Below are positions 2,390 through 62,324 of a stretch of 64,000 bases of DNA, in pieces; position 1 is the first letter of the stretch, and the number at the start of each line of letters is the position of its first letter. The translations under genes and the position numbers were made by a program. The notes beneath the pieces are model-generated. The model did not search any database, was not told the DNA's origin, and worked only from the letters and a program-made list of their open reading frames with translations. This stretch comes from an uncultured Candidatus Peribacteria bacterium (lineage in GTDB: Bacteria; Patescibacteriota; Gracilibacteria; Peribacterales; Peribacteraceae). The stretch lies in the NCBI GenBank assembly GCA_964391185.1, contig CAYMIX010000002.1, positions 90,968 to 154,967 on the forward strand. The letters are read 5' to 3'.

Positions 2390-3652
2390 TTCCACTGCAT
2401 CGATACACGCTGCACTGACATTTTTACCATAGAGCTGTGGCGCTTTTCGCATCTCCGCATTGTCCCATGCGAATTCGATCATCGCTTTGATGGCACCTGC
2501 ATCCTCTGGAGGAGCGATCAAGTTTCCACCATTGATGATAGATTCTGAACGATCAGATCCATACCGAAGGGTGACACATGGGATTCCCATCACATTCATT
2601 TCTTCCTGCATGGAACCAGAGTCAGTTGCACACACCGCAGCTTTACTCATTGCTGCAATCACATCCACGTATTCAGGCCACACATCGGAGAAAATAAAGT
2701 TCGAGTGATCCTTCGCGAGTTGCTCTACTTCTGTGGTGAGTCCAAATTTCTCGAAAGCGAACTTGGTCTGATTCATGTTAATCAGAAGTACAGTGCGACC
2801 ATCGAGAATCAAACTCTTCATCGCGTTATAAATAGACATGAAGCGCTTTTCATTTACGCAGTTTTCGCGGCGATGAATGCAGAACCGCACAAAGTTCCCG
2901 TCTTTCAATTGTGGATGACGTTCAAACACTGTTGATTCACTGATGCGCTCCATCGCTTCGTGTGTCGCATCAACAACTGAATTACCAACAACAAAGATGC
3001 GATCATTGGAGAAGCCTTCGCCGAGCATGAATTCCCTATCGAGTTCGACCGGAGCCAAGTGCACACCTGTCGCTGCTTCGCTCGCGCGTGTGTTGAACTG
3101 TTCTGGGTATGGCTCAAGGCTTCCACGTTCCCAGTTATTTCGATCCATAAGAAATGTTCGCCACTTGGCGACATCGAGATCTTTCGAAAATCCAAACTTC
3201 ACAAAGCTTGGTGTGAGCGTTCTAATTCCTGCTTCTACGTGCACAGAAGAGAATCCATTACAGAAGCCTGCATTGCTCGCGGCCATCGCTGTTGTCGTAT
3301 CACCGTGAACATATGGGATGACGATCTTATTGAGCTTCTTAAGTTCAGCGATCACAAAACCAAGGCGACCGATAATCTGGCTCACAACTTCATGCATCGA
3401 CCCACGAACGTTGAGATTGAAATCTGGTTCGACACCGAATTCTTTCAGCATTCCCCCACTGAGGTTTTCATCATAATGCTGGCCGGTGTGGCCAAGCAGC
3501 ACGAGATGACCACGCTTCTTCAATTCTTTGTACAAAGGCACCTGCTTGATAATGTCGGGCTTTGTCGCAATCAAAATAATGTGCACGTTGGTATCCTTGT
3601 GAGACCCAATGTCACTGAAGAAGCTTGCCGAGCGGTAAGTAATCTCGTTCAT
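2327..3652 (-). CDS. UDP-N-acetylglucosamine 2-epimerase family (Epimerase_2)
   Basis: LLGHTGQHYDENLSGGMLKEFGVEPDFNLNV and HVEAGIRT motifs. 441 aa. Confidence 0.75.
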   Translation of the reverse strand: MNEITYRSASFFSDIGSHKDTNVHIILIATKPDIIKQVPLYKELKKRGHLVLLGHTGQHYDENLSGGMLKEFGVEPDFNLNVRGSMHEVVSQIIGRLGFVIAELKKLNKIVIPYVHGDTTTAMAASNAGFCNGFSSVHVEAGIRTLTPSFVKFGFSKDLDVAKWRTFLMDRNNWERGSLEPYPEQFNTRASEAATGVHLAPVELDREFMLGEGFSNDRIFVVGNSVVDATHEAMERISESTVFERHPQLKDGNFVRFCIHRRENCVNEKRFMSIYNAMKSLILDGRTVLLINMNQTKFAFEKFGLTTEVEQLAKDHSNFIFSDVWPEYVDVIAAMSKAAVCATDSGSMQEEMNVMGIPCVTLRYGSDRSESIINGGNLIAPPEDAGAIKAMIEFAWDNAEMRKAPQLYGKNVSAACIDAVESVLQSGAIFRPEDERLKASF

Positions 3653-3702
3653 ACAGGCAGTTTAGCGCTGGACGAAGCGAAAGGACAGCGTAGAATAGTG
3701 CT

Positions 3703-3990
3703 ATGGAAGCGACAATCACGCCCGAACAAACCGTTGGGATAGAAGTAGAAGAAAGAATCATGCTCAAAGAACCAGTAGGCACTCGCTTCTTTACGCAGGA
3801 TCCTACTGAAGCACAAAGAATCCTCGATCATTTCGCGCTTAGCAGTGGTATCATCCGAGAGCGATGTGTCCATCTAGGCATTTACTTCGGGGGACAAGCT
3901 CAATGTGGAGAGGTACGCGTGAGAGGGCCGAGGGAAAAGATCGAAGGACTGCTCAATGAACTTCGTCCGACCAACATGATTATCGGATAA
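3703..3990 (+). CDS. hypothetical protein (95 aa)
   Basis: ORF directly preceded by TAGAAT-N6-ATG. No family recognised. Confidence 0.4.
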   Translation: MEATITPEQTVGIEVEERIMLKEPVGTRFFTQDPTEAQRILDHFALSSGIIRERCVHLGIYFGGQAQCGEVRVRGPREKIEGLLNELRPTNMIIG

Positions 3991-4737
3991 TTACGATCCT
4001 CTGTTCTGCGATTCATCTCCGAATGTAGTAAGATCGTCATGGAACATGTCTTTTGTGTAATCTGGTAAGAATTCTAAGCGATTGATTACACGTGTTTCCT
4101 TCAGATATGGATACAAATATTCATTCGAACGTGTCGGGGTTCCTGATTTGTGGCCAGTGCGAACGATCAAATCAACAGGACGGAAATCGATGCCTTGTTG
4201 AGGAAGGTCTAAGAAATTTTTAATACCTTCGATTCCATTGGGGCATCCTGCATCAAGCCATAACTTCAGTGCACGATCTTGTTCATCTAAACCTCCGTAA
4301 TCGAGCGCAACAGCTACTACCATTCCCGTTCGCTCACGCGTGTCATTCGTGATTTCATCAATAAGTTCGACGATTTTAGGAGCTTCTTCTCCTAAGCGAT
4401 CACGACGGCCCATGTGCACAAAACGCACATTTTTATTCTCAGGCCGATGCATGAAATTATCACGAAGATCTTTAAGATAGTGATCGAAAACAAAGTAAAG
4501 AATCTCTTTCTCCTTTGGATCACGATTGTCCATGTTGTCGGTTGAAAGTCCCCATGGCGCAATGATTCCAAAACACATTTCACGCGACGCTGTGATGACA
4601 GCCTTCACGCGTTCGCTGCCTTTGAAATATCCTTCCAAATACTGTTCAAGCGTTGGTTTATCTGTCCGGAAATGCTCCTTGGTCCACGTCCGATTTTTAT
4701 CGGGAATAAGGCCGACGAAGAGTCCTGGGTGATTCAT
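3991..4737 (-). CDS. divergent cis-prenyltransferase (undecaprenyl-diphosphate synthase family)
   Basis: PDKNRTW (cf. DGNRRWA), VRFVHMGRRDRL, ALDYGG and DLIVRTGH..RSNEYL line up with UppS motifs but are unusually diverged. Confidence 0.55.
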   Translation of the reverse strand: MNHPGLFVGLIPDKNRTWTKEHFRTDKPTLEQYLEGYFKGSERVKAVITASREMCFGIIAPWGLSTDNMDNRDPKEKEILYFVFDHYLKDLRDNFMHRPENKNVRFVHMGRRDRLGEEAPKIVELIDEITNDTRERTGMVVAVALDYGGLDEQDRALKLWLDAGCPNGIEGIKNFLDLPQQGIDFRPVDLIVRTGHKSGTPTRSNEYLYPYLKETRVINRLEFLPDYTKDMFHDDLTTFGDESQNRGS

Positions 4738-6535: not shown

Positions 6536-7258
6536 TCAGCGATAACGTAGAACAAGAATCGGAAATGTAACTACAGCACGCCATATGCGGGGGAACCGCT
6601 TCGGCTCGTGAAGTAAGCGCCACAGCCATTCGAGCTTCATGTTTTGCATGAAACGCGGCGCGCGCTTTTTGGTGCCCGCGATAAAGTCGAATGTTCCACC
6701 CACGCCGATTGCAACGCGCACCGATGGCATATCTTTCATATGACGATCGATCCATTGATCTTGTTTGGGAGCACCGTACGCGACGAGTAATAACCTCGCA
6801 CCACTCGCATTGATGCGACGCACAATCGCAGTCGCATCGTCATCGCGTGGAGAGCCTGCGTACGTTCCAACGAGTTGCAATAACGGATTTGCACGCTGCA
6901 GCTTCTCCCCTGCTTTTTCTGCAACACCAGGGGCTGCCCCGAGCAAAAATACTGGCTCGTTCTTGGCAAGTTCTTCACAGAGTTTGATAACGGTATCAAT
7001 GCCAGTCACGCGCTCAGGCAGGTGTTGCCCCGTTTTCTTGGCTGCCCAAAGGAGTCCTGCGCTATCCGGAAGGTTCAGGGCAGTCTGGTTCATCAGCTCT
7101 TTGAACGATGCATTGGTGGACGCCTCCACGAGCATTTCGGCATTCGGTGTCATCACATGATGCTGTTGGTTCGATGCAAGCATCGCGCGGATACGTTCAA
7201 CTGCGCCTTCTCGGGTTATAGGATCGAGCGGGACGCCAAGAATGGTGACGCGAGACAT
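6536..7258 (-). CDS. WecG/TagA/CpsF family (GT26) glycosyltransferase
   Basis: VTILGVPLDPIT..HHVMTPNAEMLVEA..LLLVAYGAPKQDQWI..GVGGTFDF. ATG 7258 preceded by TATTCT-N6. Confidence 0.8.
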   Translation of the reverse strand: MSRVTILGVPLDPITREGAVERIRAMLASNQQHHVMTPNAEMLVEASTNASFKELMNQTALNLPDSAGLLWAAKKTGQHLPERVTGIDTVIKLCEELAKNEPVFLLGAAPGVAEKAGEKLQRANPLLQLVGTYAGSPRDDDATAIVRRINASGARLLLVAYGAPKQDQWIDRHMKDMPSVRVAIGVGGTFDFIAGTKKRAPRFMQNMKLEWLWRLLHEPKRFPRIWRAVVTFPILVLRYR

Positions 7259-7287
7259 ACCAATAGAATAGCGGTACAATCCACGCG

Positions 7288-7971
7288 ATGAAAAAGTCGA
7301 TTGCCATTATCGCGTTGTTGCTCAGTGCGTGTGCATTCCCTGCACAGCCACAAAACATGGATTCTTCATCATCAGCAACTGTGTCCTCCCGCGGAAGAAC
7401 AACTGAAGGCGACGATATGCCTATCACGGGAACAGGAAGTTACCAGGCGAATGAACGCTTGTTGCCTTCGGGTATGGTGGAAATCGGCAATGCCAATGCT
7501 CCCATTTCTCTCGTTGTAGTCACAAACTACGGATGCGCGTACTGCAAAGAATTCCAGAGCACGCTCATCAATCACGTTATTACCGATTACGTTCGCTCGG
7601 ACAAGGTGCGCATCAGCATTCTTCCGTTTGCACTTCAGAAATATACAGACAGCGAGAAGACTGCGGGAACACTTCTCTGCGCAGGACAATTGAGCAAAGG
7701 CTGGCCAATGCACCAAGTTCTCTTTGCGGAAAAGATGAACTCAAAGCCATACAACGACATGCTCACAATATTGCAGATGGACCGCGCACAGCTCGAAGCA
7801 TGTGCAGCTTCGGATAACATTCGCGCAACCATCGCAGCACAGCAGTCTGTCGCAAAGTCACTCGGTGTGAGCGTGGTACCAAGCTACTTCATCAATGGTC
7901 AGAGGTTTACGGGGCTACCTGAATACGCAGATCTGAGAGGACAGATCGAAGAGGTTATGACCCAGAATTAA
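7288..7971 (+). CDS. DsbA-like thioredoxin-fold lipoprotein
   Basis: MKKSIAIIALLLSAC lipobox and CAYC (CxxC) motif. Confidence 0.75.
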   Translation: MKKSIAIIALLLSACAFPAQPQNMDSSSSATVSSRGRTTEGDDMPITGTGSYQANERLLPSGMVEIGNANAPISLVVVTNYGCAYCKEFQSTLINHVITDYVRSDKVRISILPFALQKYTDSEKTAGTLLCAGQLSKGWPMHQVLFAEKMNSKPYNDMLTILQMDRAQLEACAASDNIRATIAAQQSVAKSLGVSVVPSYFINGQRFTGLPEYADLRGQIEEVMTQN

Positions 7972-8634: not shown

Positions 8635-8904
8635 TTAAGCTAAAGTAATCCGCACCAACTTCAATCGTGCCGCTTTCCCCGAAAGTATTTTCACGTTCAA
8701 CGGAGGCACGCCAAACAGTTCTCCGATAAATTTACACAGCGCGATGTTGCCTTTGCCATCTTCCGCAGGTGCTGCTATGTCTATTTTCACGCTGCCATCA
8801 TCAAGAATATCGATGAATTGCGATTGAGCAGCGTGCGGACGCACACGAAACATCAGATCAATGCGTCCTTCTTTCTCGAGTCGTTGGCGCAAGGCATCTA
8901 TCAT
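8635..8904 (-). CDS. DUF167 (YggU-like) protein
   Basis: RVRPHAAQSQF..IDIAAPAEDGKGNIALCKFIGELFGVP..VKILSGKAARLKLVRI. ATG 8904 preceded by TATCAT-N6. Confidence 0.7.
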   Translation of the reverse strand: MIDALRQRLEKEGRIDLMFRVRPHAAQSQFIDILDDGSVKIDIAAPAEDGKGNIALCKFIGELFGVPPLNVKILSGKAARLKLVRITLA

Positions 8905-8950
8905 GCGCGCATGATAGCGAAAGAAAATATACGATAAACATTGATACACA

Positions 8951-9366: not shown

Positions 9367-10035
9367 TCACTTTACGCTTCCCTTCCTCCATTCGTCGATT
9401 TTGGCGTGATTCCCAGAGATTAAAATGTCTGGAACTTTCATGTCGCGGAACACTTCCGGGCGTGTGTAGTGCGGATATTCTTTCTTGCGACCGAGGCTTT
9501 TACTAAAGCTTTCATCCTGTGCGGATTCTTCTTTGCCGAGCACGCCTGGGATGTGACGAGCAACGGCATCGATGAGAACCATCGCAGGAAGTTCTCCACC
9601 GGTAAGCACATAATCCCCGATCGACAGTTCTTCATCGATCCATCCACCATCAATAATGCGCTGATCGATTCCTTCATAATGACCACAGAGAAGAATCAGC
9701 CAATCTTTTTTCGCAATTTTTTCGACACGCGTCTGTTTGAGCTTGGCACCACGTGGAGAAAAATAAATCCGGTGAGGTTTTAGCTGTTGGCTGTTGGCTT
9801 TTAGATCTGCTTCGATTGATTCGATAGCCTTCACCACCGGTTCACACATCATCACCATTCCGGCGCCGCCACCGTATGGACGATCATCGATCTGCTTGTA
9901 CTTCCCCTGGCCAAACTGTCGGAGGTCATGAAAACGCAGATCGAGAAGATCATTTTCACGCGCACGCTGGAGGATGCTCTCAGTCAGAGGGCCCTCAAAC
10001 ATACCGGGAAAGAGTGTAATAACATCCACGCGCAT
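9367..10035 (-). CDS. trmD: tRNA (guanine37-N1)-methyltransferase
   Basis: MRVDVITLFPGMFEGPL..DDRPYGGGAGMVM..IGDYVLTGGELPAMVLIDAV. Confidence 0.95.
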   Translation of the reverse strand: MRVDVITLFPGMFEGPLTESILQRARENDLLDLRFHDLRQFGQGKYKQIDDRPYGGGAGMVMMCEPVVKAIESIEADLKANSQQLKPHRIYFSPRGAKLKQTRVEKIAKKDWLILLCGHYEGIDQRIIDGGWIDEELSIGDYVLTGGELPAMVLIDAVARHIPGVLGKEESAQDESFSKSLGRKKEYPHYTRPEVFRDMKVPDILISGNHAKIDEWRKGSVK

Positions 10036-10165
10036 GGGGCTTACTATACAGGAAAAGTGACAAATAAACTGTACGAAATTCGGTAAAAGCCTTATGCTGA
10101 TTTCAGCATCAGATAATCAATGGCTTACCGGGCTATACCGTGAAATCGTATCTGTTGCGATAGGA

Positions 10166-15781: not shown

Positions 15782-15910
15782 TGATAGAACAACCAGAGAG
15801 TAATGCATACTTTACATTCATCCACCATTCTGTCAATCGTAAAAATTGGCTTAAAACTGCTTAAAATATATGTTTTGATGGTTTTAAAGCTTTTTTTAAG
15901 GTATAATTAC

Positions 15911-17995
15911 ATGATGTCCTTACTGAACCCAACATCGGTCGCCGTGATCGGCGCTTCTGCCCAGGAAGGCAAAGTTGGGCATGATGTGCTGAAAAATTTG
16001 GTCACGCAGGGGTATGAAGGCCCAGTGTTCCCCATCAATCCAAAAGGTGGAGAGATTTTGGGAAAAACTGTGTACGTTTCCATCAAAGACACATCAATTG
16101 TTCCAGACCTCGCAGTGATCGTGATCCCCGGAAAACTGGTTCCAGATTCACTCAAAGAATGTGGTGAACGCGGCATCAAAAACGTGATCGTCATCAGCGC
16201 AGGATTTGGCGAAGTGCATACAGAAGAAGGAAAAACATTAGAGAAGCAACTCATCGATATCGCACATCAATACGGTATCACGTTGATCGGACCAAACTGT
16301 CTTGGAATTGTCCGACCAGGCATCAAGATGAACGCATCGTTTGCGAAAGAACTTCCACCTGCTGGGAACATCGCGGTTATCTCACAATCAGGTGCGATGG
16401 GTGTAGCACTCATGGACGGAGCGATTGGTTTCGGACTTGGATTCTCTGCATTCGTGAGTGTTGGCAACAAAGCAGTCATCGATGAATCAGCAATGCTCCG
16501 CATGATGGCGGATGACACAGAAACCAAAGTGATTGGGTTCTATCTCGAGAGCATCAAAGACGGTCAGAAATTCTTGGAAGCAATTGATTATGCACACAAC
16601 AAGAAATCGATCGTGCTGCTCAAGGCAGGTGTTTCTGAACATGGTCGTGCTGCCGCATCTTCGCACACGGGTGCACTTGCTGGAAGCGATGCAGCTATCG
16701 AGGCATTGTGCGCACAGACAGGAATCCATCGTGCACATTCAACGGAAGAATTCTTGGATCTCCTCAGTGTTCTTTCATTGGAACCAACGCTCCCAAGTAA
16801 CCGCATTGCAATCATCACCAATGCAGGTGGACCTGGCATCCTCGCGACGGATGCGGCAGAAATGAAAGGACTGAAAATGCCTGCGCTTTCTGCCCTCATA
16901 GAAGCCGACCTCAAAACAAAACTCGTTCCAGCTGCGAGCACCGCAAACCCAATTGACGTGATTGGTGATGCCGGAGCAGACCGCTACGAAGCAGCAATTC
17001 TCGCATGTAAAAAGGATCCAAATATTGATGGTATCGCTGTGCTCCTCACACCTCAGGTCATGACGCCGGTGGCAGATGCTGCACGTGCAATTGTAAAGGT
17101 AATGAAGGATGTGCCACTAATGCCAGTGGTGACTGCGTTCATGGGTGGAGAATCTGTGCGTGAAGGAAAGAAGATTCTGCGCGAAGCAGGAATCCCAACA
17201 TTTGCGACACCCGAAAGAGCAATCAATGCACTTGCTGCGTTGCGCGCTAAAGCGTGTCACCCTGAGCGCGACGAAGGGCAGACACGCGGTTCTATGGTTC
17301 GCCGAGCTCACCATGACACCGCGCAAGAATTACTAAAGAATCACAGCGGGCTCTTGGACGAAGAAACCACGACGAAACTCTTCGAACTGTACGAATTGCC
17401 GATGCCAAAGGCCGCACTCACACACACCGCAGAAGATGCTGTGCGCATCGCAGAACAGCTTGGGTATCCGGTGATTATGAAGATCAGTTCTCCGCAGATT
17501 TTGCATAAGACGGACATGGGTGGCGTGCGTGCGAACATCAAGAATGCAGCTGAGGTTACACTCGCCTTCCGCGACATCATGAGTGCAGTCCAGGAAAATG
17601 CTCCGACTGCAGACGTGAAAGGAATTTTGGTTCAGCAATTCTTACCTGTTGGAAATGAATTCATCGTCGGTGCTGTCCACGATGCATCATTTGGTCCGCT
17701 GATTATGGCTGGCCTCGGTGGTATTTACACAGAACTCTTCCGCGATACCGCATTCCGCATTGCCCCTGTCACAACAGACGAAGCGTACCGCATGCTCACA
17801 GACCTGGAAGCATGGAAGCTCCTGCTTGGTATGCGCGGCAAAGCACAGTCAGATATCGAAGCATTCGCCGGTCTTATTAGTCGCGTTTCTCAAATGGTCA
17901 TCGATTGTCCCCAGATAAAAGAACTCGACCTCAACCCCGTTCTTGTCCGAAGTGATGGACTCACAGTGGCGGATGCGAAAGTCGTGCTTGGTTAA
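15911..17995 (+). CDS. ADP-forming acetyl-CoA synthetase (acetate--CoA ligase), fused alpha/beta
   Basis: LNPTSVAVIGASAQEGKVGH CoA-binding domain, succinyl-CoA-ligase-like middle part, C-terminal ATP-grasp. TATAAT 15902-15907 puts the likely start at ATG 15914/15911, not 15803. Confidence 0.85.
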   Translation: MMSLLNPTSVAVIGASAQEGKVGHDVLKNLVTQGYEGPVFPINPKGGEILGKTVYVSIKDTSIVPDLAVIVIPGKLVPDSLKECGERGIKNVIVISAGFGEVHTEEGKTLEKQLIDIAHQYGITLIGPNCLGIVRPGIKMNASFAKELPPAGNIAVISQSGAMGVALMDGAIGFGLGFSAFVSVGNKAVIDESAMLRMMADDTETKVIGFYLESIKDGQKFLEAIDYAHNKKSIVLLKAGVSEHGRAAASSHTGALAGSDAAIEALCAQTGIHRAHSTEEFLDLLSVLSLEPTLPSNRIAIITNAGGPGILATDAAEMKGLKMPALSALIEADLKTKLVPAASTANPIDVIGDAGADRYEAAILACKKDPNIDGIAVLLTPQVMTPVADAARAIVKVMKDVPLMPVVTAFMGGESVREGKKILREAGIPTFATPERAINALAALRAKACHPERDEGQTRGSMVRRAHHDTAQELLKNHSGLLDEETTTKLFELYELPMPKAALTHTAEDAVRIAEQLGYPVIMKISSPQILHKTDMGGVRANIKNAAEVTLAFRDIMSAVQENAPTADVKGILVQQFLPVGNEFIVGAVHDASFGPLIMAGLGGIYTELFRDTAFRIAPVTTDEAYRMLTDLEAWKLLLGMRGKAQSDIEAFAGLISRVSQMVIDCPQIKELDLNPVLVRSDGLTVADAKVVLG
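17254..17320 (+). repeat. family A palindromic repeat inserted in frame in the acd interdomain linker
   Basis: GTGTCACCCTGAGCGCGACGAAGGGC...ATGGTTCGCCGAGCTCACCATGAC. Translated as CHPERDEGQTRGSMVRRAHHDT. Confidence 0.75.
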
Positions 17996-20178: not shown

Positions 20179-20597
20179 TTACGGACGACGTCTGTTCCAA
20201 TAAAACCCGAACCGATAAATACTTCCATACTAATCATATCGTCAATGCGCTGGCGAACAGCAATCGTATTTTGGCTTACCCCATTCAATAACTCTTCCAT
20301 ATTTCTTTGTAATGTTTCACGATTCGTCACGCCCCATAGCACCTGATTATCCTGAACAAGATCAACGGATGAATTATGCCCATCCACGCCTTCACTTATT
20401 TCAATAAAACGACTTTCGACCATGTACGGAATTTGCTCCATACGATCAACTAAAGGCGTTTCACCAATTTCGTGTTGTGCTAGCCGAAAACGAATTTTCT
20501 GCTTTATGGCTTCATCAAGATCATTGCGCTCCAAAAACTTCTCAAGAAGTTCAGGATAAAAATTTTCATCTGGCACGTATCTTTGAGCTTCAGACAT
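20145..20597 (-). CDS. hypothetical protein (150 aa)
   Basis: ATG 20597 (MSEAQRY) preceded by TATCTT-N6. No family recognised. Confidence 0.45.
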   Translation of the reverse strand: MSEAQRYVPDENFYPELLEKFLERNDLDEAIKQKIRFRLAQHEIGETPLVDRMEQIPYMVESRFIEISEGVDGHNSSVDLVQDNQVLWGVTNRETLQRNMEELLNGVSQNTIAVRQRIDDMISMEVFIGSGFIGTDVVRNQFDTGPVGGR

Positions 20598-20647
20598 GAC
20601 GTTAAGATAGAGAAATTTCCTCAAAAAAAGAATACAATTCATCCTCT

Positions 20648-37219: not shown

Positions 37220-37223
37220 GGTC

Positions 37224-38275: not shown

Positions 38276-38281
38276 GCAAAT

Positions 38282-39254: not shown

Positions 39255-39332
39255 GCTCTAAATGTATCATGCTTTCTTTTCTTCGTGATACGCCATGGTT
39301 CGTCGGGCTCACCACAGGTTTTCAAGGAACTA

Positions 39333-40988: not shown

Positions 40989-41109
40989 AGTAGAGAGTAT
41001 AACCAGACCGGCGACCTGCCCACCGTAGCTCCACAGAGCGAAGGCGGGTAGTCGCAACCTTCTTCGTCATAATAAGTTGCGGAACCATACCATACAGTTG
41101 GCTTCTATC

Positions 41110-45796: not shown

Positions 45797-45900
45797 GTAA
45801 GACGAGCAAAAAGAGGTTATAGTATAGCTGATTTATCCTTCTCACGACAAACACCAGGGGTATTCGTGCACAAAGCAGTTATATGCTATATTTTGGGCAT

Positions 45901-46929: not shown

Positions 46930-48035
46930 AACCCTTGTGCATGGACCAAATCCGCATGTGGAAGATGTGCAGCTGGTAACACCTTCTTCCAGAAGGGATG
47001 GTTTGCGATGTTGCCAGCGATCACCGGGCGAATCTCTACGCCAGCAGCTTCAAACCGTTGAATAATAGATGCAAGGATGTCTTCAGATTGCGCGATGAGT
47101 GGCATGGCAAAGTTGGAGACGCGCTCTATGTGATGAGCACTGAGAGCGTAATAGAGATCTGGACGTTTTGCTGCAGCCGCATGGAAACGCTTGAAGTTTG
47201 CTTCACGCTTTTGAATCGTGCTTTCGAGCATCGGCAGTTGGACTGATCCGAGGAATCCGGTGATCTCCGTCGGACGCAAATTGTAGGCAGATTCGTAGAA
47301 TGTATATCGCGCATGGAAATCATCGACATGGTTTTCGGCACGCATTTTCTTCTGCATTTCTACAGGAAGACTTCGGTCCCAACCGTGCGCACGCACCATC
47401 ACCATCATGTGATACAACTCTTCATCGTCGGTACAGATAATGCCTCCTTCGATAGTAGAAAGATGATGTCCGACGAAGAATGAACAGGTGGATGCAATAC
47501 CATAATTTCCGAGGAGTTTTTCTTTGTAACGTGTCCCCAACGATTCGCAGTTATCTTCGATGAGAATCACATGATGTTCGTCACACAAGTTTTTGATCGC
47601 ATCGATATCACCACAAAAACCAAGCACGTTCGTAATGAAGAATGCCTGGAGATCGTTGATGTGCTTTTTGAGTTCGTCAGCCGTAACGTTTAAGTGATCC
47701 ACACTGCAATCGATGGCAACCGGCACCAATCCCAACTGCATCAGAGGCATGACGTTTGTGGCCCATGTGAGAGCGGAAACACCAACCTTATCGCCGCGCT
47801 TCAGTCGACCAAGGTTAATAAGCGATTGAATGAGATCGAGGTTGGCTGTGCTGCCATTGCTCACAAGCACCGCATATTTTCGCTCCTGGAACGTAGCGAA
47901 TTCGCGTTCAAACTGGACACAATGTTCGCCCATACTCAGACGCGATGATTTTCTGATGAAATCCGCGAGCTTATCTTTCGTCTGCTCTTCCTCAAAAAAA
48001 GTCGAGCGCATCAATGGAATTCTGATACTTGTCAT
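46854..48035 (-). CDS. DegT/DnrJ/EryC1-fold sugar 3-dehydratase-like enzyme (ColD/RfbH-like; His replaces the PLP lysine)
   Basis: SFFVGHHLSTIEGG, where aminotransferases have SFxxxK. HGWDR motif. ATG 48035 preceded by TATCAT-N6. Confidence 0.6.
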   Translation of the reverse strand: MTSIRIPLMRSTFFEEEQTKDKLADFIRKSSRLSMGEHCVQFEREFATFQERKYAVLVSNGSTANLDLIQSLINLGRLKRGDKVGVSALTWATNVMPLMQLGLVPVAIDCSVDHLNVTADELKKHINDLQAFFITNVLGFCGDIDAIKNLCDEHHVILIEDNCESLGTRYKEKLLGNYGIASTCSFFVGHHLSTIEGGIICTDDEELYHMMVMVRAHGWDRSLPVEMQKKMRAENHVDDFHARYTFYESAYNLRPTEITGFLGSVQLPMLESTIQKREANFKRFHAAAAKRPDLYYALSAHHIERVSNFAMPLIAQSEDILASIIQRFEAAGVEIRPVIAGNIANHPFWKKVLPAAHLPHADLVHAQGFYFPNNPELTSEEVDLLCTLVEASA

Positions 48036-48068
48036 GTTCATATGATACCAAATACATATCGAACATGC

Positions 48069-48102: not shown

Positions 48103-49293
48103 TTAACGAATCAACCTCGTAATCGCATCAGATACAATCTTTTTGACCGCCTCCTCTGAAAATAGTTTATGAGCTTTGGCATAAGCGGCATCCGCCTGCT
48201 TCTGGCGACGAACGTAATCAGATAATTCTATGAGATGATCGACGTATTCGTCAGGGGTATCTGCGAGCATTATTTCTTTCCCTGGTTCGAAGTGGTAACC
48301 GGCAATCTTCGTTGTGATAAGAGGAATGGAACGACACAATGGTTCGAATACTTTCTGCTGCATACCATGCCCAGTAATCCACGGGCAGAGTGCAATATCC
48401 ATTTTGGAAATAAATTCACCGAGATCCGGAACGAACCCAACAGGTTGCGCGTCGTCACCGAGATATTCTTTATACCGATCCATCGGGAACTTGCTGCCCG
48501 TGAAGTGGAACCGGAACTTCCCCGGAGCACGCTTGCGGACAATCGGCAGAATCTTTTCGATCATGTATTCAAGCGCATCACGATTGTGTCCCATGTTGTA
48601 GTTCGAGCTCAGGAACACGACATCGAGAACTTCTTTATGCTGATGCGTTTTGTGCGCAAAGCATTTGGATAAACCACGCAGCGGCAACGTACCCGTGTGC
48701 TTGGCTCCGCGACTCTTGTACCAATCCTCTTCTACTGGAGTAATGCCAAAGATGAAGTCCGATTCCTTTGCAGCAATCGTCTCACCCGGATATTTCGGAA
48801 GGGACTTGATAATGGACTTCAGTGACCATCCATTTTCATCACGACAGTTTGCAGGTTCATTGAGTGACGACTTCATGATCGTTGGAATGCCGTATGGCTT
48901 GAGCAGTCTCAACGTTGGCCAAAGCAAGGTGTATTCAATCCATGCGAGATCTGGCTTGAATCGTTCGACCTCTTCTTTCACAACACGTTCGTATTCAGGA
49001 TCGGTGTATTCCAGAGCCGCACCATCGAGTAATGCTGGAGATGCGAGGATGCGTGGAATCCTTTTGAGAGCTAATTGATATGGATGCTGGACATAGGGAA
49101 GAAGCGTCAGCGGAATATTCAGCTCAGCAAATGCGCGTTCGACATCTTCACGTGGTTGCCACTTATGAATCTTGGCAATTACATGGAGTTCGTACCCCAA
49201 GCTCTGCATCTGCTTTAAACCATTAAAGCGGTCCTGCTGGCAGGCGCCAGTGACGGGGTAAGGGACCCAGGGTGTTAAAACTAATATCTTCAC
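48103..49293 (-). CDS. GT4-like (GT-B) glycosyltransferase
   Basis: VKILVLTPWVPYP. C-terminal E..(7)..E-type region. GTG 49293 preceded by TATCCT-N6. Confidence 0.7.
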   Translation of the reverse strand: MKILVLTPWVPYPVTGACQQDRFNGLKQMQSLGYELHVIAKIHKWQPREDVERAFAELNIPLTLLPYVQHPYQLALKRIPRILASPALLDGAALEYTDPEYERVVKEEVERFKPDLAWIEYTLLWPTLRLLKPYGIPTIMKSSLNEPANCRDENGWSLKSIIKSLPKYPGETIAAKESDFIFGITPVEEDWYKSRGAKHTGTLPLRGLSKCFAHKTHQHKEVLDVVFLSSNYNMGHNRDALEYMIEKILPIVRKRAPGKFRFHFTGSKFPMDRYKEYLGDDAQPVGFVPDLGEFISKMDIALCPWITGHGMQQKVFEPLCRSIPLITTKIAGYHFEPGKEIMLADTPDEYVDHLIELSDYVRRQKQADAAYAKAHKLFSEEAVKKIVSDAITRLIR

Positions 49294-49336
49294 GGGTTTA
49301 GGATACACGAAACAGCGTTCAGTTAACGGGTTAATT

Positions 49337-49361: not shown

Positions 49362-49391
49362 CATTAACAAATTAACGTTAGACTCAGTTTA

Positions 49392-50165
49392 ATGAAAAAC
49401 CTCGTCCTGCTTTGGCGATTACTTACAACAGTAAGGAACTGGCCAGTCTATTTCCTCAATAGATTTGGCTACATGAACAATAAAAGCGAGGTTCATTTTC
49501 ATCTGTGGAACGGCATGACCATCGTCGGACGACCATTTTCCATCGACCGTGCGATCATTAATGAAGAGTGGTTGGACCGATGTTACGAACCAAATCAGTC
49601 GGGAATTCATTTCGATTGGAAGGCATGCACAACGATTCTCGATATCGGATCTCACATTGGAACATTTACATTGTATGCAGCTGCTAAAGCCCCGAATGCG
49701 CACATCACTGCGTTCGAACCGGAGCCAACGAATGCAGCAATGTTGCGACGTAATATCGAGATCAATAATCTCGGCAATCGTGTGAAGGCAGTCGAAGCTG
49801 CAGTCAGTGGAACGAATGGAACGATCACGCTCAATATGACCAAAGCGAGTGGAAGCGGAGGACATTCCATCTATTCCTATACATCTGATGCCAAGACGAT
49901 CGAGGTGCCGATGGTGTCACTTTCATCGATTCTCAAAGACATCCAACACTGTGACTTTTTGAAGATCGACTGCGAAGGTGCGGAGTATGAAGCGTTTTAT
50001 AATCTGAGCGATGAAGAGTTTAAAAAGATCGGATTCATCGCGATGGAATATCATCACTTTTCGAAAGATCCGACACATACGCCTGTGCATTTGAAGAAGT
50101 TCTTGGAGGACAAAGGATTCAAGGTAATGGAGCCGGCGAAGTCATTGTTCTTCGCGCATAGATAA
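49392..50165 (+). CDS. FkbM-family methyltransferase
   Basis: ILDIGSHIGTFTLYAAAKAPNAHITAFEPEPTNAAMLRRNIEINNL. Confidence 0.8.
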   Translation: MKNLVLLWRLLTTVRNWPVYFLNRFGYMNNKSEVHFHLWNGMTIVGRPFSIDRAIINEEWLDRCYEPNQSGIHFDWKACTTILDIGSHIGTFTLYAAAKAPNAHITAFEPEPTNAAMLRRNIEINNLGNRVKAVEAAVSGTNGTITLNMTKASGSGGHSIYSYTSDAKTIEVPMVSLSSILKDIQHCDFLKIDCEGAEYEAFYNLSDEEFKKIGFIAMEYHHFSKDPTHTPVHLKKFLEDKGFKVMEPAKSLFFAHR

Positions 50166-50268: not shown

Positions 50269-50344
50269 GGCGTGCTTAGCAAAGGTGGCAAAAGACCCAT
50301 TCCAATGACTAGCCGAAAAATTCGTCCTACCCTACAATTTCCGC

Positions 50345-51616
50345 ATGGAGAAGCTGTCAGTATGCATCGTCGGCTTGGGATACGTCGGCCAACCATTGGC
50401 TTACGCCTTTGCGAAGCACGGCTTCCCTGTTTCGGGTTTTGATATTTTCGAAAAGCGCATTGAGGAACTGAAGTCTGGATTTGATCGAACGAATGAGCTC
50501 AGCAAAGAAGAGCTCGCATCAGTAAGCATCACCTACAGTTCCGATCCATCCGTCATTGGTAATGCGAAGGTGGTGATTATCGCTTTGCCAACTCCCGTCG
50601 ATGACAACAACAAGCCTGACCTCAAAATCCTCGAGGCTGGAACACACACTGTTGGAAAGCAGCTCAAAAAAGGAATGGTCGTCGTGTATGAATCAACAGT
50701 GTACCCGGGAGTCACCGAAGAAATTTGCGGACCAATTCTCGAACAAGAATCAGGACTGAAATCTGGAATAGACTTCACGTTGGGCTACTCGCCTGAACGC
50801 ATCAACCCCGGAGACAAGCAACACACGGTGGAAACGATCATCAAGATTGTGTCCGGACAGGACGAAAAGACGACGGACATTTTGTGTGATTTGTATGGAT
50901 CGATTGTGAGCGCAGGAATTCACCGCGCATCAAGCATCAAAGTAGCAGAGATGGCGAAGGCAATCGAGAACGCTCAGCGCGATATCAACATCGCATATAT
51001 CAACGAAGTGGCGATGCTCTGTAATCACCTCGGTATCAGAACGAAAGATGTGCTCGATGCCGCAGGCACCAAGTGGAACTTCCTCAAGTTCCAACCAGGG
51101 CTTGTGGGTGGACACTGCATCGGCGTTGATCCTTTTTACCTGGTAGAAAAAGCACGTCGGCTCGGCATGAACACGCAGCTGATTACCGCAGGCCGCAGCA
51201 TCAATGATGGCATGGCGAACTTCATCGCTGACAGAGTAACTGGCGCGCTCAAGACACCGATCGATAACGCGCGCATCCTCGTCCTAGGACTCACCTTCAA
51301 AGAAGACGTGCCAGATACGCGCAACAGCAAAGTGCACGACGTGATCAACGCTCTCAAAGATCGTGGAGCAACGGTAGAAGCGCATGATCCATTCCTGACA
51401 GATGCAGCGTTGGGAGCCATGAAGCTGACGCCAGGCTCACTCGAAAAAGGACCATATGATGCAGTGATGCTCCTGGTTCCTCACAAGCAATATCTGGAAG
51501 CTCCTGTTCAAACGATCATCAATGCGACGCAAGAGGGAGGTGTGGTGTACGACTTGAAGTCGCTGCTTGATGCGAATACGATTGTAAATCAGAAGAGGCA
51601 ATATCTAAGCCTCTAA
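50345..51616 (+). CDS. nucleotide-sugar (UDP-N-acetylhexosamine) dehydrogenase, TviB/WbpO/Cap5O-like
   Basis: VGLGYVGQPLAYAFAKHGFPVSGFDI..GGHCIGVDP. TACAAT-N6-ATG. Confidence 0.8.
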   Translation: MEKLSVCIVGLGYVGQPLAYAFAKHGFPVSGFDIFEKRIEELKSGFDRTNELSKEELASVSITYSSDPSVIGNAKVVIIALPTPVDDNNKPDLKILEAGTHTVGKQLKKGMVVVYESTVYPGVTEEICGPILEQESGLKSGIDFTLGYSPERINPGDKQHTVETIIKIVSGQDEKTTDILCDLYGSIVSAGIHRASSIKVAEMAKAIENAQRDINIAYINEVAMLCNHLGIRTKDVLDAAGTKWNFLKFQPGLVGGHCIGVDPFYLVEKARRLGMNTQLITAGRSINDGMANFIADRVTGALKTPIDNARILVLGLTFKEDVPDTRNSKVHDVINALKDRGATVEAHDPFLTDAALGAMKLTPGSLEKGPYDAVMLLVPHKQYLEAPVQTIINATQEGGVVYDLKSLLDANTIVNQKRQYLSL

Positions 51617-52529: not shown

Positions 52530-53039
52530 CTAGCGTCGTTCAAATGCATATCGCAGCAGCCCATACGCACTCACCATATGCACTTTTGAAGATGTGAGAA
52601 CTTTCTGAATGGCTTCGTCGAAAGGCATTTCATGCACTTCGATAAGTTCATCATGATCTTGTTCAAGCGGACTCTCGAAGAGACCATGACCGACATAGAT
52701 ATGATTCGTAATCACGATCGAATCAGACAGATTACCCGTACAATATTTTTTCAAATCCTTGGCATCGAAACCTGTTTCTTCGCGCAGTTCACGATGTGCT
52801 GCGACAAGGAGATCCGCTTCTTTGTCGGCTTTTCCACTCGGTAGCATCCAAATATATTCACCATAAAACGCACGAAATTCGCGGAGCATCAGAATCGTTC
52901 CTGGTGTTTTGAAAGCAATGATATGAACAGAATCATTGCGATGTACGCGTACGGATTTCTTGATACGACCATCAGGAAGAGGTGCTGTATCGAGTGTGAC
53001 GCGCCAGTCGAATTGATTGAAAAGTTCTTCTGAAGTCAT
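52530..53039 (-). CDS. NUDIX hydrolase
   Basis: Nudix box GKADKEADLLVAAHRELREETGF. TATCAT-N6-ATG. Confidence 0.8.
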   Translation of the reverse strand: MTSEELFNQFDWRVTLDTAPLPDGRIKKSVRVHRNDSVHIIAFKTPGTILMLREFRAFYGEYIWMLPSGKADKEADLLVAAHRELREETGFDAKDLKKYCTGNLSDSIVITNHIYVGHGLFESPLEQDHDELIEVHEMPFDEAIQKVLTSSKVHMVSAYGLLRYAFERR

Positions 53040-53050
53040 AACCGAATGAT

Positions 53051-53090
53051 ACTCCCCATACCCCCATTACCCCCAACACTCGCCTTACTG
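53051..53090. repeat. family C half-element (C-rich arm)
   Basis: ACTCCCCATACCCCCATTACCCCCAACACTCGCCTTACT. Confidence 0.65.
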
Positions 53091-56093: not shown

Positions 56094-57518
56094 TCAGGTT
56101 GCGATAGTGAGCACGACCATGACAATGCCGCCAACGACATAACTCACGTAATCCTTCAGTGCGAACACAATAGGATCATCGTGCATTTTGCCACGACGAG
56201 CCTGTATCCAAATACGCGTAATCCAATAGAGAATGAGCGGAATCACTGCCCATAAATATTCCGGATAGGCATAGAGCCGCGTCACTTGGTCACTGGTGAT
56301 ATATAACGCAAGAACCACCGCAGCGATAAACCCGCTCGCCGCACCAAGTATCTGAACCATGTTCCTATCGCCCGTCACATAGCTACGACCGGCGATCGTG
56401 TGCTTTTGTTCGCGAGCAGAACTTTCAAGTTCGGAATAGCGCTTAACAAGTGCAAGGCTGAAGAAGAAAAACATGGCGAACACAAGTAGCCACACCGAAT
56501 ACTGCAGGCCGGATGCTTCGTGCCCAGCGATGATACGAACGCTATAAAGTGCTGCAAGTACGAGGACATCGATAAACATCAGCTGCTTGAGATACAACGA
56601 ATATGCAAGTGTCAGAATGAAATACCCAACAAGTACCAAGCTAAAGCTCGCTGGCAATTGTGATGCAGCAATGCCAGAACCTATGAGCAATAACGGTACA
56701 GCAGTGATCGCAATAGGAATGGGAAGATCCCCCGAAGCGAGAGGACGAAAACGCTTACGTGGATGCGCGCGATCGGATGCAAGATCGAGCAAATCATTCA
56801 GTAAATACACACACGATGTACAACAGCAGAAAGCGATAAGCGCAATAAGGCCATTGAGCATAATCGAACCATTTCCCAATGCGTGACCCGTCACAAATGG
56901 CACAAAAATCAGCGCATTTTTGGTCCACTGATACGGACGGATCGCGCGAACAAACGCTCGTACGACAGACTTTTTATCATGAAATTCTTTATCAACAAAA
57001 CCCAAAGCTTTGGCTGCACGACGAATACTTTCAGGCGCATTTACGACGATCGCTTTGCGCGCATCTTTCCATACGTTCATATCCACTTTTGCATTGCCGA
57101 TATAATCAAACCCTTTGTGACCGAAGCGTTCAACGAGCAGCTTTGCTTTGTTGTTACCTGTAAGATTGATGCCACTACCTGAACCAATTACTTCATCGAA
57201 TACACGAACGTAATCAGCTGCCTGTTGCGCCATGAGCGTTGGTGTTCCTGTGACCAATAATAACTGACGACCTTCTGCGCGTTGTTCACGAAGGTACGCG
57301 AGCAGTGTTTCGTGATACGGCAAAACAGTTACATCGAGCGCGACAAGCGCTGCGACACGTTCTTTGAAAACACTCTTCCCTTGCAGAAGCCAAAACGGAA
57401 GCACAAACAATAAGTGTGGCTGCTTTTTGAGGAGCAATACAACTGCTTCCCACATCGCATCAGTGCGGAGAAGTGTCCCATCAAGGTCTACGCACAAAGG
57501 GATGGATGGATGTTCCAC
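56094..57518 (-). CDS. fusion: HAD-like phosphatase (N) + UbiA-family polyprenyl-phosphate phosphoribosyltransferase-like (C)
   Basis: CVDLDGTLL (DxDxT), then NDLLDLASDRAHPRKRFRPLASG (UbiA NDxxDxxxD). GTG 57518 preceded by TATACT-N6. The ORF is open to 57554. Confidence 0.7.
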   Translation of the reverse strand: MEHPSIPLCVDLDGTLLRTDAMWEAVVLLLKKQPHLLFVLPFWLLQGKSVFKERVAALVALDVTVLPYHETLLAYLREQRAEGRQLLLVTGTPTLMAQQAADYVRVFDEVIGSGSGINLTGNNKAKLLVERFGHKGFDYIGNAKVDMNVWKDARKAIVVNAPESIRRAAKALGFVDKEFHDKKSVVRAFVRAIRPYQWTKNALIFVPFVTGHALGNGSIMLNGLIALIAFCCCTSCVYLLNDLLDLASDRAHPRKRFRPLASGDLPIPIAITAVPLLLIGSGIAASQLPASFSLVLVGYFILTLAYSLYLKQLMFIDVLVLAALYSVRIIAGHEASGLQYSVWLLVFAMFFFFSLALVKRYSELESSAREQKHTIAGRSYVTGDRNMVQILGAASGFIAAVVLALYITSDQVTRLYAYPEYLWAVIPLILYWITRIWIQARRGKMHDDPIVFALKDYVSYVVGGIVMVVLTIAT

Positions 57519-57561
57519 GAATGGAGTATAGAGCAGATGACAGGTACTATGCACCGGTCAC

Positions 57562-60271: not shown

Positions 60272-60387
60272 TGGCTAGCCAGCATACACCGATAAACCCA
60301 TGAGAAAATCAAAATAACAAATAGCAAAGAAAGATCTCAAATCCTAAGTAATCAATAGCTTAAACGGGTGGGAGCGCGCCGATTGGG

Positions 60388-60487
60388 GTCCTTCGTGGCT
60401 CGCGACGATGTGTCATGGTGAGGTGCCCCGTCGAGGGGCCACGAACCATCACATCGCTCGCACCTCAGGATGACACCCCTTCGGCGC
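60388..60487. repeat. family A composite element (reverse orientation)
   Basis: Reverse complement reads GTGTCATCCTGAGGTGC..ATGGTTCGTGGCCCCTCGACGGGGCACCTCACCATGAC..CGAAGGAC. Confidence 0.75.
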
Positions 60488-60509
60488 ACAAAGCAGGTAT
60501 AATCCCTGT

Positions 60510-62324
60510 ATGTGCGGTATCGCCGGACTCTCCGGAGAACATCGGCAAACGATTGAAGCGATGACCAACTGTCTGGTCCATCGCGGTCCTGACGGTAATG
60601 CGATTTGGACCGGAAACGGAGCAAGCTTGGGCCACGCTCGCCTCGCAATCTTGGACCCTCGCCCTGAAGGTGATCAGCCAATGTGGAATGACGATAAAAC
60701 GATTGCGATCGTCTACAACGGAGAAATCTACAACTACCGCGAACTCCGCGACATCGAGAATCTGAAGTGTAAAACCACAACTGATACAGAAGTGATCCTA
60801 AAGCTCTACGAAAAGTACGGAACAGATTTCATTCACCGACTCCGCGGAATGTTCGCTTTCGGTATGTACGATACGAAGAAAAAGCTATGGACGCTCGCTC
60901 GCGACAGCAAAGGAATTAAGCCGCTCTTCATCGCACATCCGAATAATCAATTAGCTTTTGCATCCGAAATGCGAGCACTGATGCGCGCAATGCCAAGTAA
61001 GCCTGCAATTAACATGACTGCGCTCTCGCAATATATGCGATTGCAGTATGTTCCGGGTCCTCAAACGCTGTGTGTAGGAATTGAATCCTTGCCCCCAGGA
61101 ACAATCTTGGAATGGCATGAGGGTACTGAGACCCGAAAGAAGTTTGAACCAAAGGAAGAGGCCTCGTATGCATCCAAGAACGATTTTAAGGAACACTTCC
61201 CGACTGTAATGGACGATATTGTTCATCAACATTTAGTTTCTGATAAACCGGTTGGTATTTATCTCAGTGGAGGAATCGATTCATCGGTCGTGTTGCACCA
61301 CATGAGTAAACACGCAGCAAAGCCGATCAAGACGTTTACTGTACGTTTTGATGCAACGGAAGAAGAAGGTTCTGCGCGCTTTAATACTGATGCCGAACTG
61401 GCGAAGAAAACCGCAGAACATTACGGAACAGATCATCATGAAATATTCCTCACAGCGGAAGCTTATAAAGATCTCTATAAAGAAACCGCTCGAGCACTCG
61501 ATCAACCAAATGCAGACTCTGTGTCAGTGGCTCAGGTATTGCTTTCCCGTGAAGCAAAGAAGCACGTCGACGTTGTGCTCACCGGCGCGGGAGGTGACGA
61601 ATTATTCGGCGGCTATCCACGCTATCGCATTGCTCGTGTGCTCCAGGCAACTGGCCTGATTCCATCAATGGTTCGATCGCAAACAGGAAAGATCATGGGC
61701 TATCCGCATGATGTCTTGGCGATGACGCCTGGTGCACGACTTGCGGAACGATTACTCGCACGGCCAATGAGTGAACTCACACCGATTATCAAAGGCGAAT
61801 GGCTCGATGAATCAGCGACGACAAAACTCTTCGCAGAAAGGTTCGATGCACTTAAGACTTTTGATCCTGTCCGCGCCTTCATGGAATTCGATCGTCACTT
61901 GTGGCTGATCGATGAATCATTACGCCTCGCTGATGCAACAACAATGGCACACGGCGTCGAAGCACGCGTTCCGTTTGTAGACGAGCGAATCATTGCCGCA
62001 TCGCACGCAACGCCTGCGGCTTGGCACGCAACACTAACGAAGACGAAAGCACTACTCAAAGATACGTACCGCGGAATTCTTCCAGATCATCTCTATACAT
62101 TGAAGAAGGCTTCATTCTATCCCCCGCTCGCCAAGTGGCTCCGCCGCGAAGCTGCACCGCTCGCAGAAGAAATGATCGCAAACAAACGCATCCAGGAATT
62201 GTTTGATGCAGAGGAACTGCAGAAAGAATTCTATGAACACCGCGAGAAAAAGGTGTATCGGTTGCACACGCTCCAAGCACTTATTCAACTAAGTAACTGG
62301 TTTGAGACGGTGTATGACGCTTAG
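60510..62324 (+). CDS. asnB: asparagine synthase (glutamine-hydrolysing)
   Basis: MCGIAG N-terminal nucleophile, SGGIDSS PP-loop. TATAAT-N6-ATG. Confidence 0.9.
   Translation: MCGIAGLSGEHRQTIEAMTNCLVHRGPDGNAIWTGNGASLGHARLAILDPRPEGDQPMWNDDKTIAIVYNGEIYNYRELRDIENLKCKTTTDTEVILKLYEKYGTDFIHRLRGMFAFGMYDTKKKLWTLARDSKGIKPLFIAHPNNQLAFASEMRALMRAMPSKPAINMTALSQYMRLQYVPGPQTLCVGIESLPPGTILEWHEGTETRKKFEPKEEASYASKNDFKEHFPTVMDDIVHQHLVSDKPVGIYLSGGIDSSVVLHHMSKHAAKPIKTFTVRFDATEEEGSARFNTDAELAKKTAEHYGTDHHEIFLTAEAYKDLYKETARALDQPNADSVSVAQVLLSREAKKHVDVVLTGAGGDELFGGYPRYRIARVLQATGLIPSMVRSQTGKIMGYPHDVLAMTPGARLAERLLARPMSELTPIIKGEWLDESATTKLFAERFDALKTFDPVRAFMEFDRHLWLIDESLRLADATTMAHGVEARVPFVDERIIAASHATPAAWHATLTKTKALLKDTYRGILPDHLYTLKKASFYPPLAKWLRREAAPLAEEMIANKRIQELFDAEELQKEFYEHREKKVYRLHTLQALIQLSNWFETVYDA

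Follow-up and report, generated by a model that had tools for sequence, protein, structure and literature searches.

What does it mean for a gene when a promoter-like hexamer ends only six nucleotides before its start codon? The question is raised by a stretch of 64,000 nucleotides from an uncultured Candidatus Peribacteria bacterium (C2:90968-154967, on contig C2 of the genome assembly studied), referred to here as the window. A preliminary description of the window listed 19 genes preceded by a -10-like hexamer, mostly of the form TAnnnT, at a nearly fixed distance from the start, and proposed that their mRNAs are leaderless. We write Nk for the number of nucleotides (nt) between the end of the hexamer and the start codon, so that N6 stands for 6 nt. 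On re-reading, all 19 sites carried the hexamer, spacing and start codon that had been listed. In this study we follow the arrangement through the whole genome and its relatives, and conclude that it very probably reflects sigma-70-type promoters fused to start codons, which would yield leaderless mRNAs.

The organism is a member of the Peribacteraceae, within the Candidate Phyla Radiation (CPR/Patescibacteria), and uses the standard genetic code. Its assembled genome comprises 1.476 Mb in 31 contigs, with 48.8% GC. The TrmD protein encoded in the window shares 66-78% identity with TrmD of metagenome-assembled genomes (MAGs) labelled Candidatus Peribacteria, Peribacteraceae or Peregrinibacteria; with all remaining TrmD the identity is about 50%.

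Results

The hexamer is enriched at a fixed distance from start codons

A simple, conservative coding-potential caller delivered 970 complete genes covering 77% of the genome. Only candidate starts at most 150 nt from the first start of each open reading frame (ORF) were allowed, and the 1962 candidates served for the background. Among these genes TAnnnT stands at N6 before ATG 135 times, against a local background of 30.9 (Poisson P=3e-43). In 200 dinucleotide-preserving shuffles of the 40 nt upstream, the count averaged 31.6 (sd 5.4) and reached 46 at most; the genome-wide enrichment over shuffled sequence, on which the proposal of leaderless mRNAs hung, is thus present as a sharp peak at N6. 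The preliminary description had put the chance rate at 1 in 50-60 per position, which agrees with the measured 1.6% (30.9/1962). The counts for N7, N8 and N9 are 84, 85 and 55, over a background of about 31. Spacings of N5 and shorter gave no ATG excess in this gene set, as is expected if the purine of the start codon must be reachable as position +1.

The peak also appears when gene annotation is set aside and TANNNT-Nk-ATG is counted before every ATG that begins a reading frame of 100 codons or more. N6 then occurs 202 times against about 85 in the same codon phase, N7 182 times against about 125, and N8 142 times against about 70, while control triplets gave no peak in this count. The enrichment at N6 is beyond chance by a wide margin. 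Once the background is subtracted, the layout accounts for roughly a fifth to a quarter of all genes and for roughly 30% of those first in an operon. Relaxed forms of the hexamer (NAnnnT, TAnnnV and TBnnnT) showed no positional excess, and thus offer no way of enlarging the leaderless fraction.

The hexamer behaves as part of a promoter

T-12, A-11 and T-7 are obligatory, as hexamers with any one of them replaced show no excess. The logo of the N6 set displays T, T and G at 35, 34 and 33 nt before the start codon, corresponding to a 17-bp spacer, together with a G at -14 and, within the hexamer, a preponderance of A at positions 4 and 5. In the N7 and N8 sets the TTG is displaced by 1 and 2 nt, respectively, and therefore keeps its distance from the hexamer, not from the start codon. 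Across 321 promoters, TTG occurs at spacers of 16, 17 and 18 bp in 17, 27 and 14 cases, where intragenic TANNNT sequences lead one to expect 5.8, 2.9 and 2.1; pooled over the three spacers this makes 58 against about 11. The TGn motif is found in 22%, compared with 6% in the control. These observations support the hexamer being part of a real promoter with a -35 element and an extended -10.

The base at -1 is C or T in 132 of 151 N6 starts (87%), a preference that is weaker for N7 and N8. Around the start codon the bases follow the order Y(-1) R(+1) Y(+2), and the purine comes 7-8 bp after the -10 box. In a study of mapped starts from 49 bacteria, transcription starts 7 bp downstream of the -10 box on a pyrimidine-purine-pyrimidine "start element", and the transcription start site (TSS) co-localises with the start element in 93% of cases when it is centred 7 bp downstream, and in 79% at 8 bp (PMC12641261). 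Here a pyrimidine, A or G and a T follow one another, with the purine as seventh (N6) or eighth (N7) base after the hexamer, so that transcription is predicted to have its +1 on the first base of the start codon.

Tandem repeats with a period of 7-9 nt are common in the intergenic DNA (37224-37299, 49330-49377, 53049-75, 22130-90, 26359-95 and others); 40% of 733 arrays fall in the 23% of the genome outside gene calls, and some hold -10-like hexamers. Similar heptamer arrays surround the -10 box in relatives, such as GCTGAAA repeated four times before trmD in locus L001. Considered as a promoter feature, such repeats precede leaderless-type starts in 12% of cases and other starts in 11%, and have no specific link to the former.

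ATG and GTG starts carry the signal

In the 970-gene set GTG also shows an excess at N6 (22 vs 11.3, P=0.003), which is sharper for TAnAAT-N6-GTG (7 vs 0.5, P=1.6e-6), and TTG start codons show no TAnnnT excess. In two high-GC members of the family GTG is as frequent at N6 as ATG (7 vs 0.5 and 11 vs 1.0 per 100 kb), and TTG at N6 was counted 0 times in those relatives. The data support a restriction of the 5'-terminal start codon to ATG or GTG. Mycobacteria require an ATG or GTG at the 5' terminus, which is also sufficient, and make no effective use of TTG or CTG there; in Escherichia coli a leaderless GTG works poorly (PMC4633059). The earlier caution that leaderless initiation on GTG would be unusual consequently holds for E. 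coli and fails as a general statement, given the mycobacterial use of GTG and the GTG peak at N6 reported here.

Pfam domains begin 2-8 residues from the chosen starts in many of the flagged genes. The predicted start codons of most flagged genes are supported by agreement with Pfam alignments or with the N-termini of orthologues. Translation would begin at these codons, from which N-termini are conserved and at which ATG and GTG interchange in orthologues.

The geometry is conserved while the bases change

A 160-kb syntenic stretch of a congener (G002) was compared with the window; the proteins are 50-80% identical, and the upstream DNA is not alignable. TAnnnT at N6-N8 is kept in G002 for 10 of the 16 listed sites that have an orthologue there (starts at 3652, 7258, 8904, 29400, 48035, 50345, 53039, 60510, 37219 and 57518), with differing hexamer and spacer sequences. 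Candidate 44575, absent from the original list, likewise keeps TAnnnT at N6-N8. At 10035 and 40988 the box lies at N9 in G002, and at 49293 an imperfect TATTCG stands at N6.

Wider comparisons agree with this picture. The N-terminus M/V-R-I-D-V of trmD is kept in 27 Peribacteria orthologues, 12 of which have TAnnnT at N6, 6 of these 12 on GTG; when the 27 loci are pooled, the N6 peak is 35 against about 7. For the GT2 glycosyltransferase gene starting at 37219, GTG is found at the same codon (V-L-S-I-I-L-P-T-Y-N) in 10 of 15 family orthologues, the others having ATG, and 8 of the 10 that keep GTG have TAnnnT at N6. The HAD-UbiA gene (57518) is preceded by TATACT-N6-GTG in G001 and G002, and by TATACT-N6-ATG at the equivalent position in G004 and G006. 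For the GT1 gene (49293), the proteins of G001 and G002 start MKILVLTPW, with ATG at the GTG codon, behind TATTCT or TATTCG at N6. All three predicted GTG starts are thus supported by relatives. The box-to-start geometry is kept across orthologues of the genus and of the family while the bases change.

The same statistic was applied to 100-kb samples of other genomes, which are small, so that negatives are soft. Of seven other Peribacteraceae genomes, six give a clear signal (P 2e-5 to 7e-12) and the seventh a weak one. The signal is weak in two of six relatives of the same class and borderline or absent in the other four; of eight other members of the phylum, one has it strongly and three modestly, while four yield none. 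The trait appears to be present in all sampled members of the family and patchy in the phylum.

Operon position and Shine-Dalgarno background

Genes with a divergent upstream neighbour, which must be first in their operon, have the box at N6-8 in 42% of cases, against 14-16% at control spacings. In genes less than 30 nt behind a co-directional gene the figures are 22% and about 9%. The preliminary description had noted stop/start overlaps at operon-internal genes; these are confirmed by 219 close co-directional pairs, with 45 overlaps at -4 (ATGA) and 17 at -1 (TAATG/TGATG).

Shine-Dalgarno (SD) motifs are rare, which supports a low fraction of SD genes. Of 648 genes that lack a -10 box at N6-8, only about 20-30 (about 5%) account for the peak of AGGAG or GGAG at -13..-9. 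The 16S rRNA 3' tail (contig C1:~980-1040) reads CAUCUCCUU, not CCUCC; the 3' end here and in most of the family is GGAUGGAACAUCUCCUUACC, its core CCUCC having changed to UCUCC. Two genera of the family carry CACCUCCUU with the canonical CCUCC, four have UUUCC and most have UCUCC, and relatives at the class level mostly keep CCUCC. A GGGAG/GGGAA sequence about 6 nt downstream of the anti-SD covaries with the core changes (loci L196-L225), which suggests that the tail pairs with the 3' trailer in a hairpin of the precursor rRNA. Candidatus Peribacter riflensis has been described as "SD-scarce", without a conserved CCUCC and with 7% SD genes (PMC10783764).

A strong SD, AGGAGG, is found 8 nt before an ATG at 10228; the short upstream ORF that it serves comes to an end close to the start of a GT2 gene at 10260 (10199-10262). 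This small SD-led frame sits in the 224-bp gap after trmD. Strong SD sites are few, and this one indicates that SD-led initiation persists in the genome. In genes without a box at N6-8, the stretch from -25 to -1 is G-poor and pyrimidine-rich (G 9-18%, against about 24% genome-wide). Its top 5-mers, TTTCC, TTTTC, TTCCT, TTCCC and TCCTC, are 3-6 fold over the -70..-56 control, and the stretch may be a non-SD leader signal. Ribosomal protein S1 is uninformative as a correlate, since each of the 31 genomes checked has a four-domain homologue.

The 16S gene itself is split in the assembly, with the 515F region at C2:220232 (the end of C2) and the remainder at the start of C1, so that contigs C1 and C2 are probably adjacent. 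In genomes G005, G007, G010 and G073 the 3' 196 nt of 16S match as 2-4 pieces that stand about 70 nt to about 0.9 kb apart, which suggests insertions in their 16S genes. Such insertions are known for CPR bacteria.

Sites in the window

The listed sites and further candidates from the window are collected in Table 1. The promoter TTGACA-N17-TAAAAT claimed upstream of 38282 was found on re-reading and is the best consensus promoter of the window; the ORF behind it is unverified. Four divergent pairs have each start behind its own -10 box (7256-7290, 3650-3705, 20595-20650 and 49291-49394), with 29, 50, 50 and 98 bp between the start codons, respectively. In the 29-bp pair 7258/7288 the -10 boxes are 4 bp apart and each -35 element would fall within the opposite gene; both promoters must therefore compete for the same DNA.

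Table 1. Hexamer-start arrangements in the window. Sites run from hexamer to start codon, and the last column gives the orthologous site in G002 or another remark.
Element	Position	Strand	Gene or reading frame	G002 orthologue or remark
TAAACT-N6-ATG	3650..3664	-	UDP-GlcNAc 2-epimerase-like (2327-3652); Pfam Epimerase_2	TATTCT-N6-ATG; first start of the ORF
TAGAAT-N6-ATG	3691..3705	+	95-aa ORF (3703-3990), divergent partner of 3652	No Pfam family, no orthologue in the fetched G002 stretch; ORF unverified
TATTCT-N6-ATG	7256..7270	-	WecG/TagA glycosyltransferase (6536-7258), Pfam	TATTCT-N6-GTG, aligned codon
TACAAT-N7-ATG	7275..7290	+	DsbA/thioredoxin-like (7288-7971)	Divergent from 7258
TATCAT-N6-ATG	8902..8916	-	DUF167/YggU (8635-8904), Pfam	TACCAT-N7-ATG, MIETFR N-terminus
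TATAGT-N7-ATG	10033..10048	-	trmD (9367-10035), Pfam	
TATAAT-N6-ATG	15902..15916	+	ADP-forming acyl-CoA synthetase (15914-17995); CoA_binding_2 from residue 8	Second in-frame ATG at 15911, beside the 15914 start
TATCTT-N6-ATG	20595..20609	-	150-aa ORF (20145-20597)	No Pfam family, no orthologue in the fetched G002 stretch; ORF unverified
TACAAT-N6-ATG	29398..29412	-	Peptidase S51 (28657-29400); Pfam domain from residue 5	TACGAT-N6-ATG
CATAAT-N6-GTG	37217..37231	-	GT2 glycosyltransferase (36251-37219); GT2 domain from residue 3	
TTGACA-N17-TAAAAT-N6-ATG	38247..38284	+	137-aa orphan ORF (38282-38695)	No Pfam family, no orthologue in the fetched G002 stretch, no homologue in 40 other family genera
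TATACT-N7-ATG	40986..41001	-	FAD/NAD(P)-binding oxidoreductase (39333-40988); NAD_binding_8 from residue 7	TACACT-N9-ATG
TATCAT-N6-ATG	48033..48047	-	DegT/DnrJ aminotransferase (46854-48035), Pfam	TATCAT-N6-ATG
TATCCT-N6-GTG	49291..49305	-	GT1/GT4 glycosyltransferase (48103-49293), Pfam	
TAGACT-N7-ATG	49379..49394	+	FkbM methyltransferase (49392-50165)	Divergent partner of 49293
TACAAT-N6-ATG	50333..50347	+	UDP-glucose/GDP-mannose dehydrogenase (50345-51616); Pfam N-terminal domain from residue 6	TATACT-N6-ATG
TATCAT-N6-ATG	53037..53051	-	NUDIX hydrolase (52530-53039), Pfam	TACGAT-N8-ATG
TATACT-N6-GTG	57516..57530	-	HAD-UbiA prenyltransferase fusion (56094-57518), Pfam	
TATAAT-N6-ATG	60498..60512	+	Asparagine synthase AsnB (60510-62324); MCGI start, catalytic Cys = residue 2	TAAACT-N6-ATG, MCGIAG
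TAAACT-N6-ATG	591..605	-	608-aa gene running off the left end of the window	Unlisted candidate; N-terminus unaligned in G002
TACATT-N6-ATG	39252..39266	-	185-aa gene (38697-39254)	Unlisted candidate; not conserved in G002
TATTTT-N6 (or TATATT-N8) + ATG	45889..45903	+	342-aa gene (45901-46929)	Unlisted candidate
N7	26646	+		Unlisted candidate
N7	28666	-		Unlisted candidate
N8	24387	-		Unlisted candidate
N8	44575	-		Unlisted candidate

An Rfam scan of the window returned one tRNA only. A tRNA-Ser(CGA), at 30501-30592 on the minus strand, lies within a mechanically called 463-aa ORF (29434-30825, minus strand), and at least the 5' part of this ORF is therefore not a gene.

Discussion

We propose that ordinary sigma-70-type promoters are set in Peribacteraceae so that transcription would begin on the A or G of the start codon. 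RNA polymerase would start 7-8 bp downstream of the -10 box, on the Y-R-Y formed by a pyrimidine, A or G and T, and the resulting mRNAs would have neither a 5' untranslated region nor an SD site. A ribosome that already carries initiator tRNA would bind directly to their 5'-terminal AUG or GUG, in the manner of mycobacteria and Deinococcus; leaderless genes have also been shown experimentally in Deinococcus deserti. Downstream cistrons would be reached mostly via the stop/start overlaps ATGA and TAATG. The leaderless architecture put forward in the preliminary description is supported by the sequence-level tests available, namely the positional peak, the -35 and TGn elements, the Y-R-Y context, the bias to operon-first genes and the conservation.

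Several observations weigh against this proposal or limit its reach. The orthologue of 15914 in G002 has the same N-terminus behind TATAAT-N19, and the unlisted N8 candidate 24387 becomes N14 there; these longer spacings imply a short leader at both genes in G002. The -35 element is weak, TTG being found at 16-18 bp in only about 18% of promoters. Searching the 20 kb of the window between 36 and 56 kb for the strict sigma-70 consensus, by a 9-of-12 rule, gave fewer promoters than shuffles did and recovered only two of the flagged ones; this search is uninformative either way, because the -35 elements are too weak for such a rule. At N8 or N9 spacing, a leader of 1-3 nt is as likely as none. 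Three of the twelve ATG genes listed at N6 (3703, 20597 and 38282) are orphan ORFs. Finally, about one third of the TAnnnT hits at N6-8 genome-wide are expected by chance, and single sites lacking orthologue support may be false positives at a risk of about one third.

Three other explanations have to be weighed. The TA-rich hexamer could be an mRNA signal, such as a non-SD ribosome- or S1-binding site, in a longer leader transcribed from further upstream, on the model of the GeneMarkS-2 "group B" genomes, for example of Bacteroidota. An SD-poor genome with an altered anti-SD and a four-domain S1 homologue would suit such a signal, and the G-poor, pyrimidine-rich stretch of box-less genes means that some non-SD leader signal probably exists. 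We nevertheless regard this origin of the hexamer as very improbable. The hexamer has the exact sigma-70 -10 signature with its three obligatory bases, and the -35 TTG and TGn stand at promoter distances and move with it. The group B motif precedes all genes (PMC6028130), whereas the hexamer is much rarer before closely following operon-internal genes. Furthermore, TTG starts, which work with ribosome-binding sites, are without a peak.

Equally small is the probability we give to real promoters that mostly produce leaders of 1-5 nt, with transcription starting 5-6 nt after the -10 box and strict leaderlessness confined to a minority. N7, N8 and N9 together (224) do outnumber N6 (135), and the pyrimidine preference at -1 fades at N7 and N8. 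Against this, at N6 the A stands at the preferred start site, as the seventh base after the -10 box and within a Y-R-Y; at N7 the start codon opens on the eighth base, the next-best position (PMC12641261); and N5 and shorter spacings are without excess.

That starts were merely picked because they happened to follow TAnnnT in AT-richer intergenic DNA is hardly credible: 7 of the 19 starts do lie downstream of a longer in-frame alternative, and, with all 5' candidates admitted, 9-14% of genes have a hit at the control spacings N14-16, yet the same sharp N6 peak arises with neither annotation nor start choice, no shuffle approaches the observed count, and the chosen starts match Pfam boundaries and orthologue N-termini. 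Chance is refuted for the whole set and possible for the single sites 3703, 20597 and 38282.

Fusion of promoter and start codon thus being our preferred explanation, a broader reading, to which we give an even chance, is that the Peribacteraceae are a family part-way through abandoning SD initiation, with leaderless first genes, later cistrons that are reinitiated or have pyrimidine leaders, and a stepwise decay of the anti-SD. Operon-first genes would then be leaderless on AUG or GUG, with GUG as common as AUG in high-GC members, and later cistrons would be served by stop/start reinitiation or by G-poor pyrimidine leaders. The anti-SD, once released, would decay from CCUCC to UCUCC to UUUCC within the family. 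If this is true, the Peribacteraceae form a natural series in which one can ask which came first, the loss of SD use or the loss of the anti-SD, and the graded decay of the anti-SD inside a single family lends itself to comparative study.

Bacteria of the CPR can barely be cultivated, and their ribosomes are reduced. A large share of mRNAs that are probably leaderless, on GUG as well as AUG, would constrain the mechanism of translation initiation in CPR. In these MAGs, gene callers geared to SD sites will place starts wrongly; recognising the fusion of -10 box and start would predict them cheaply and accurately, both in Peribacteraceae and in those other CPR lineages where the signal occurs. 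For the heterologous expression of CPR genes, it means that native upstream regions would carry no ribosome-binding site.

Comparison with known systems

The mechanism itself is not new, and the SD scarcity of Peribacteria is already published. We found no paper on leaderless promoters in CPR, Patescibacteria or Peribacteria, and the Peribacteria genome paper does not mention promoters and start signals (PMC4736985). The class of SD-scarce lineages lacking CCUCC (class iv) comprises Ca. Peribacter riflensis, Flavobacteriia, SR1 and some reduced endosymbionts (PMC10783764). The genome studied here shares with it a 16S tail without CCUCC and the rarity of SD motifs. That survey, however, scores only the pairing of rRNA and mRNA, and does not describe promoter-start fusion. 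Moreover, Flavobacteriia, the main members of the class, differ in having leadered mRNAs with A-rich upstream regions, and are not leaderless.

Translational coupling by termination-reinitiation is a further parallel, as operon-internal genes here peak at ATGA (-4) and TAATG/TGATG (-1). It concerns non-first cistrons, and so complements the fusion of -10 box and start without being the feature itself.

The closest parallel is with the GeneMarkS-2 "group C" genomes (Actinobacteria and Deinococcus-Thermus), in which a Pribnow box lies 6-8 nt from the start in 25-50% of transcription units (PMC6028130), and leaderless architecture has been shown experimentally in Mycobacterium tuberculosis and M. 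smegmatis (PMC4633059). The architecture predicted for Peribacteraceae is of this kind, and lineage-wide. Indeed, the Pribnow box precedes operon-first starts by 6-8 nt, SD sites are lacking there, starts are ATG or GTG and not TTG, a Y-R-Y lies at +1, and the share of about 30% of operon-first genes falls within the range reported. The mycobacterial rule, by which ATG and GTG serve and TTG does not, is reproduced in this Peribacteraceae genome. The remaining genes of group C genomes use SD, whereas here SD motifs are found in about 5% and the anti-SD core is mutated. The host differs as well, being a CPR/Patescibacteria lineage with a 1.5-Mb genome in which the architecture is predicted from sequence and comparison.

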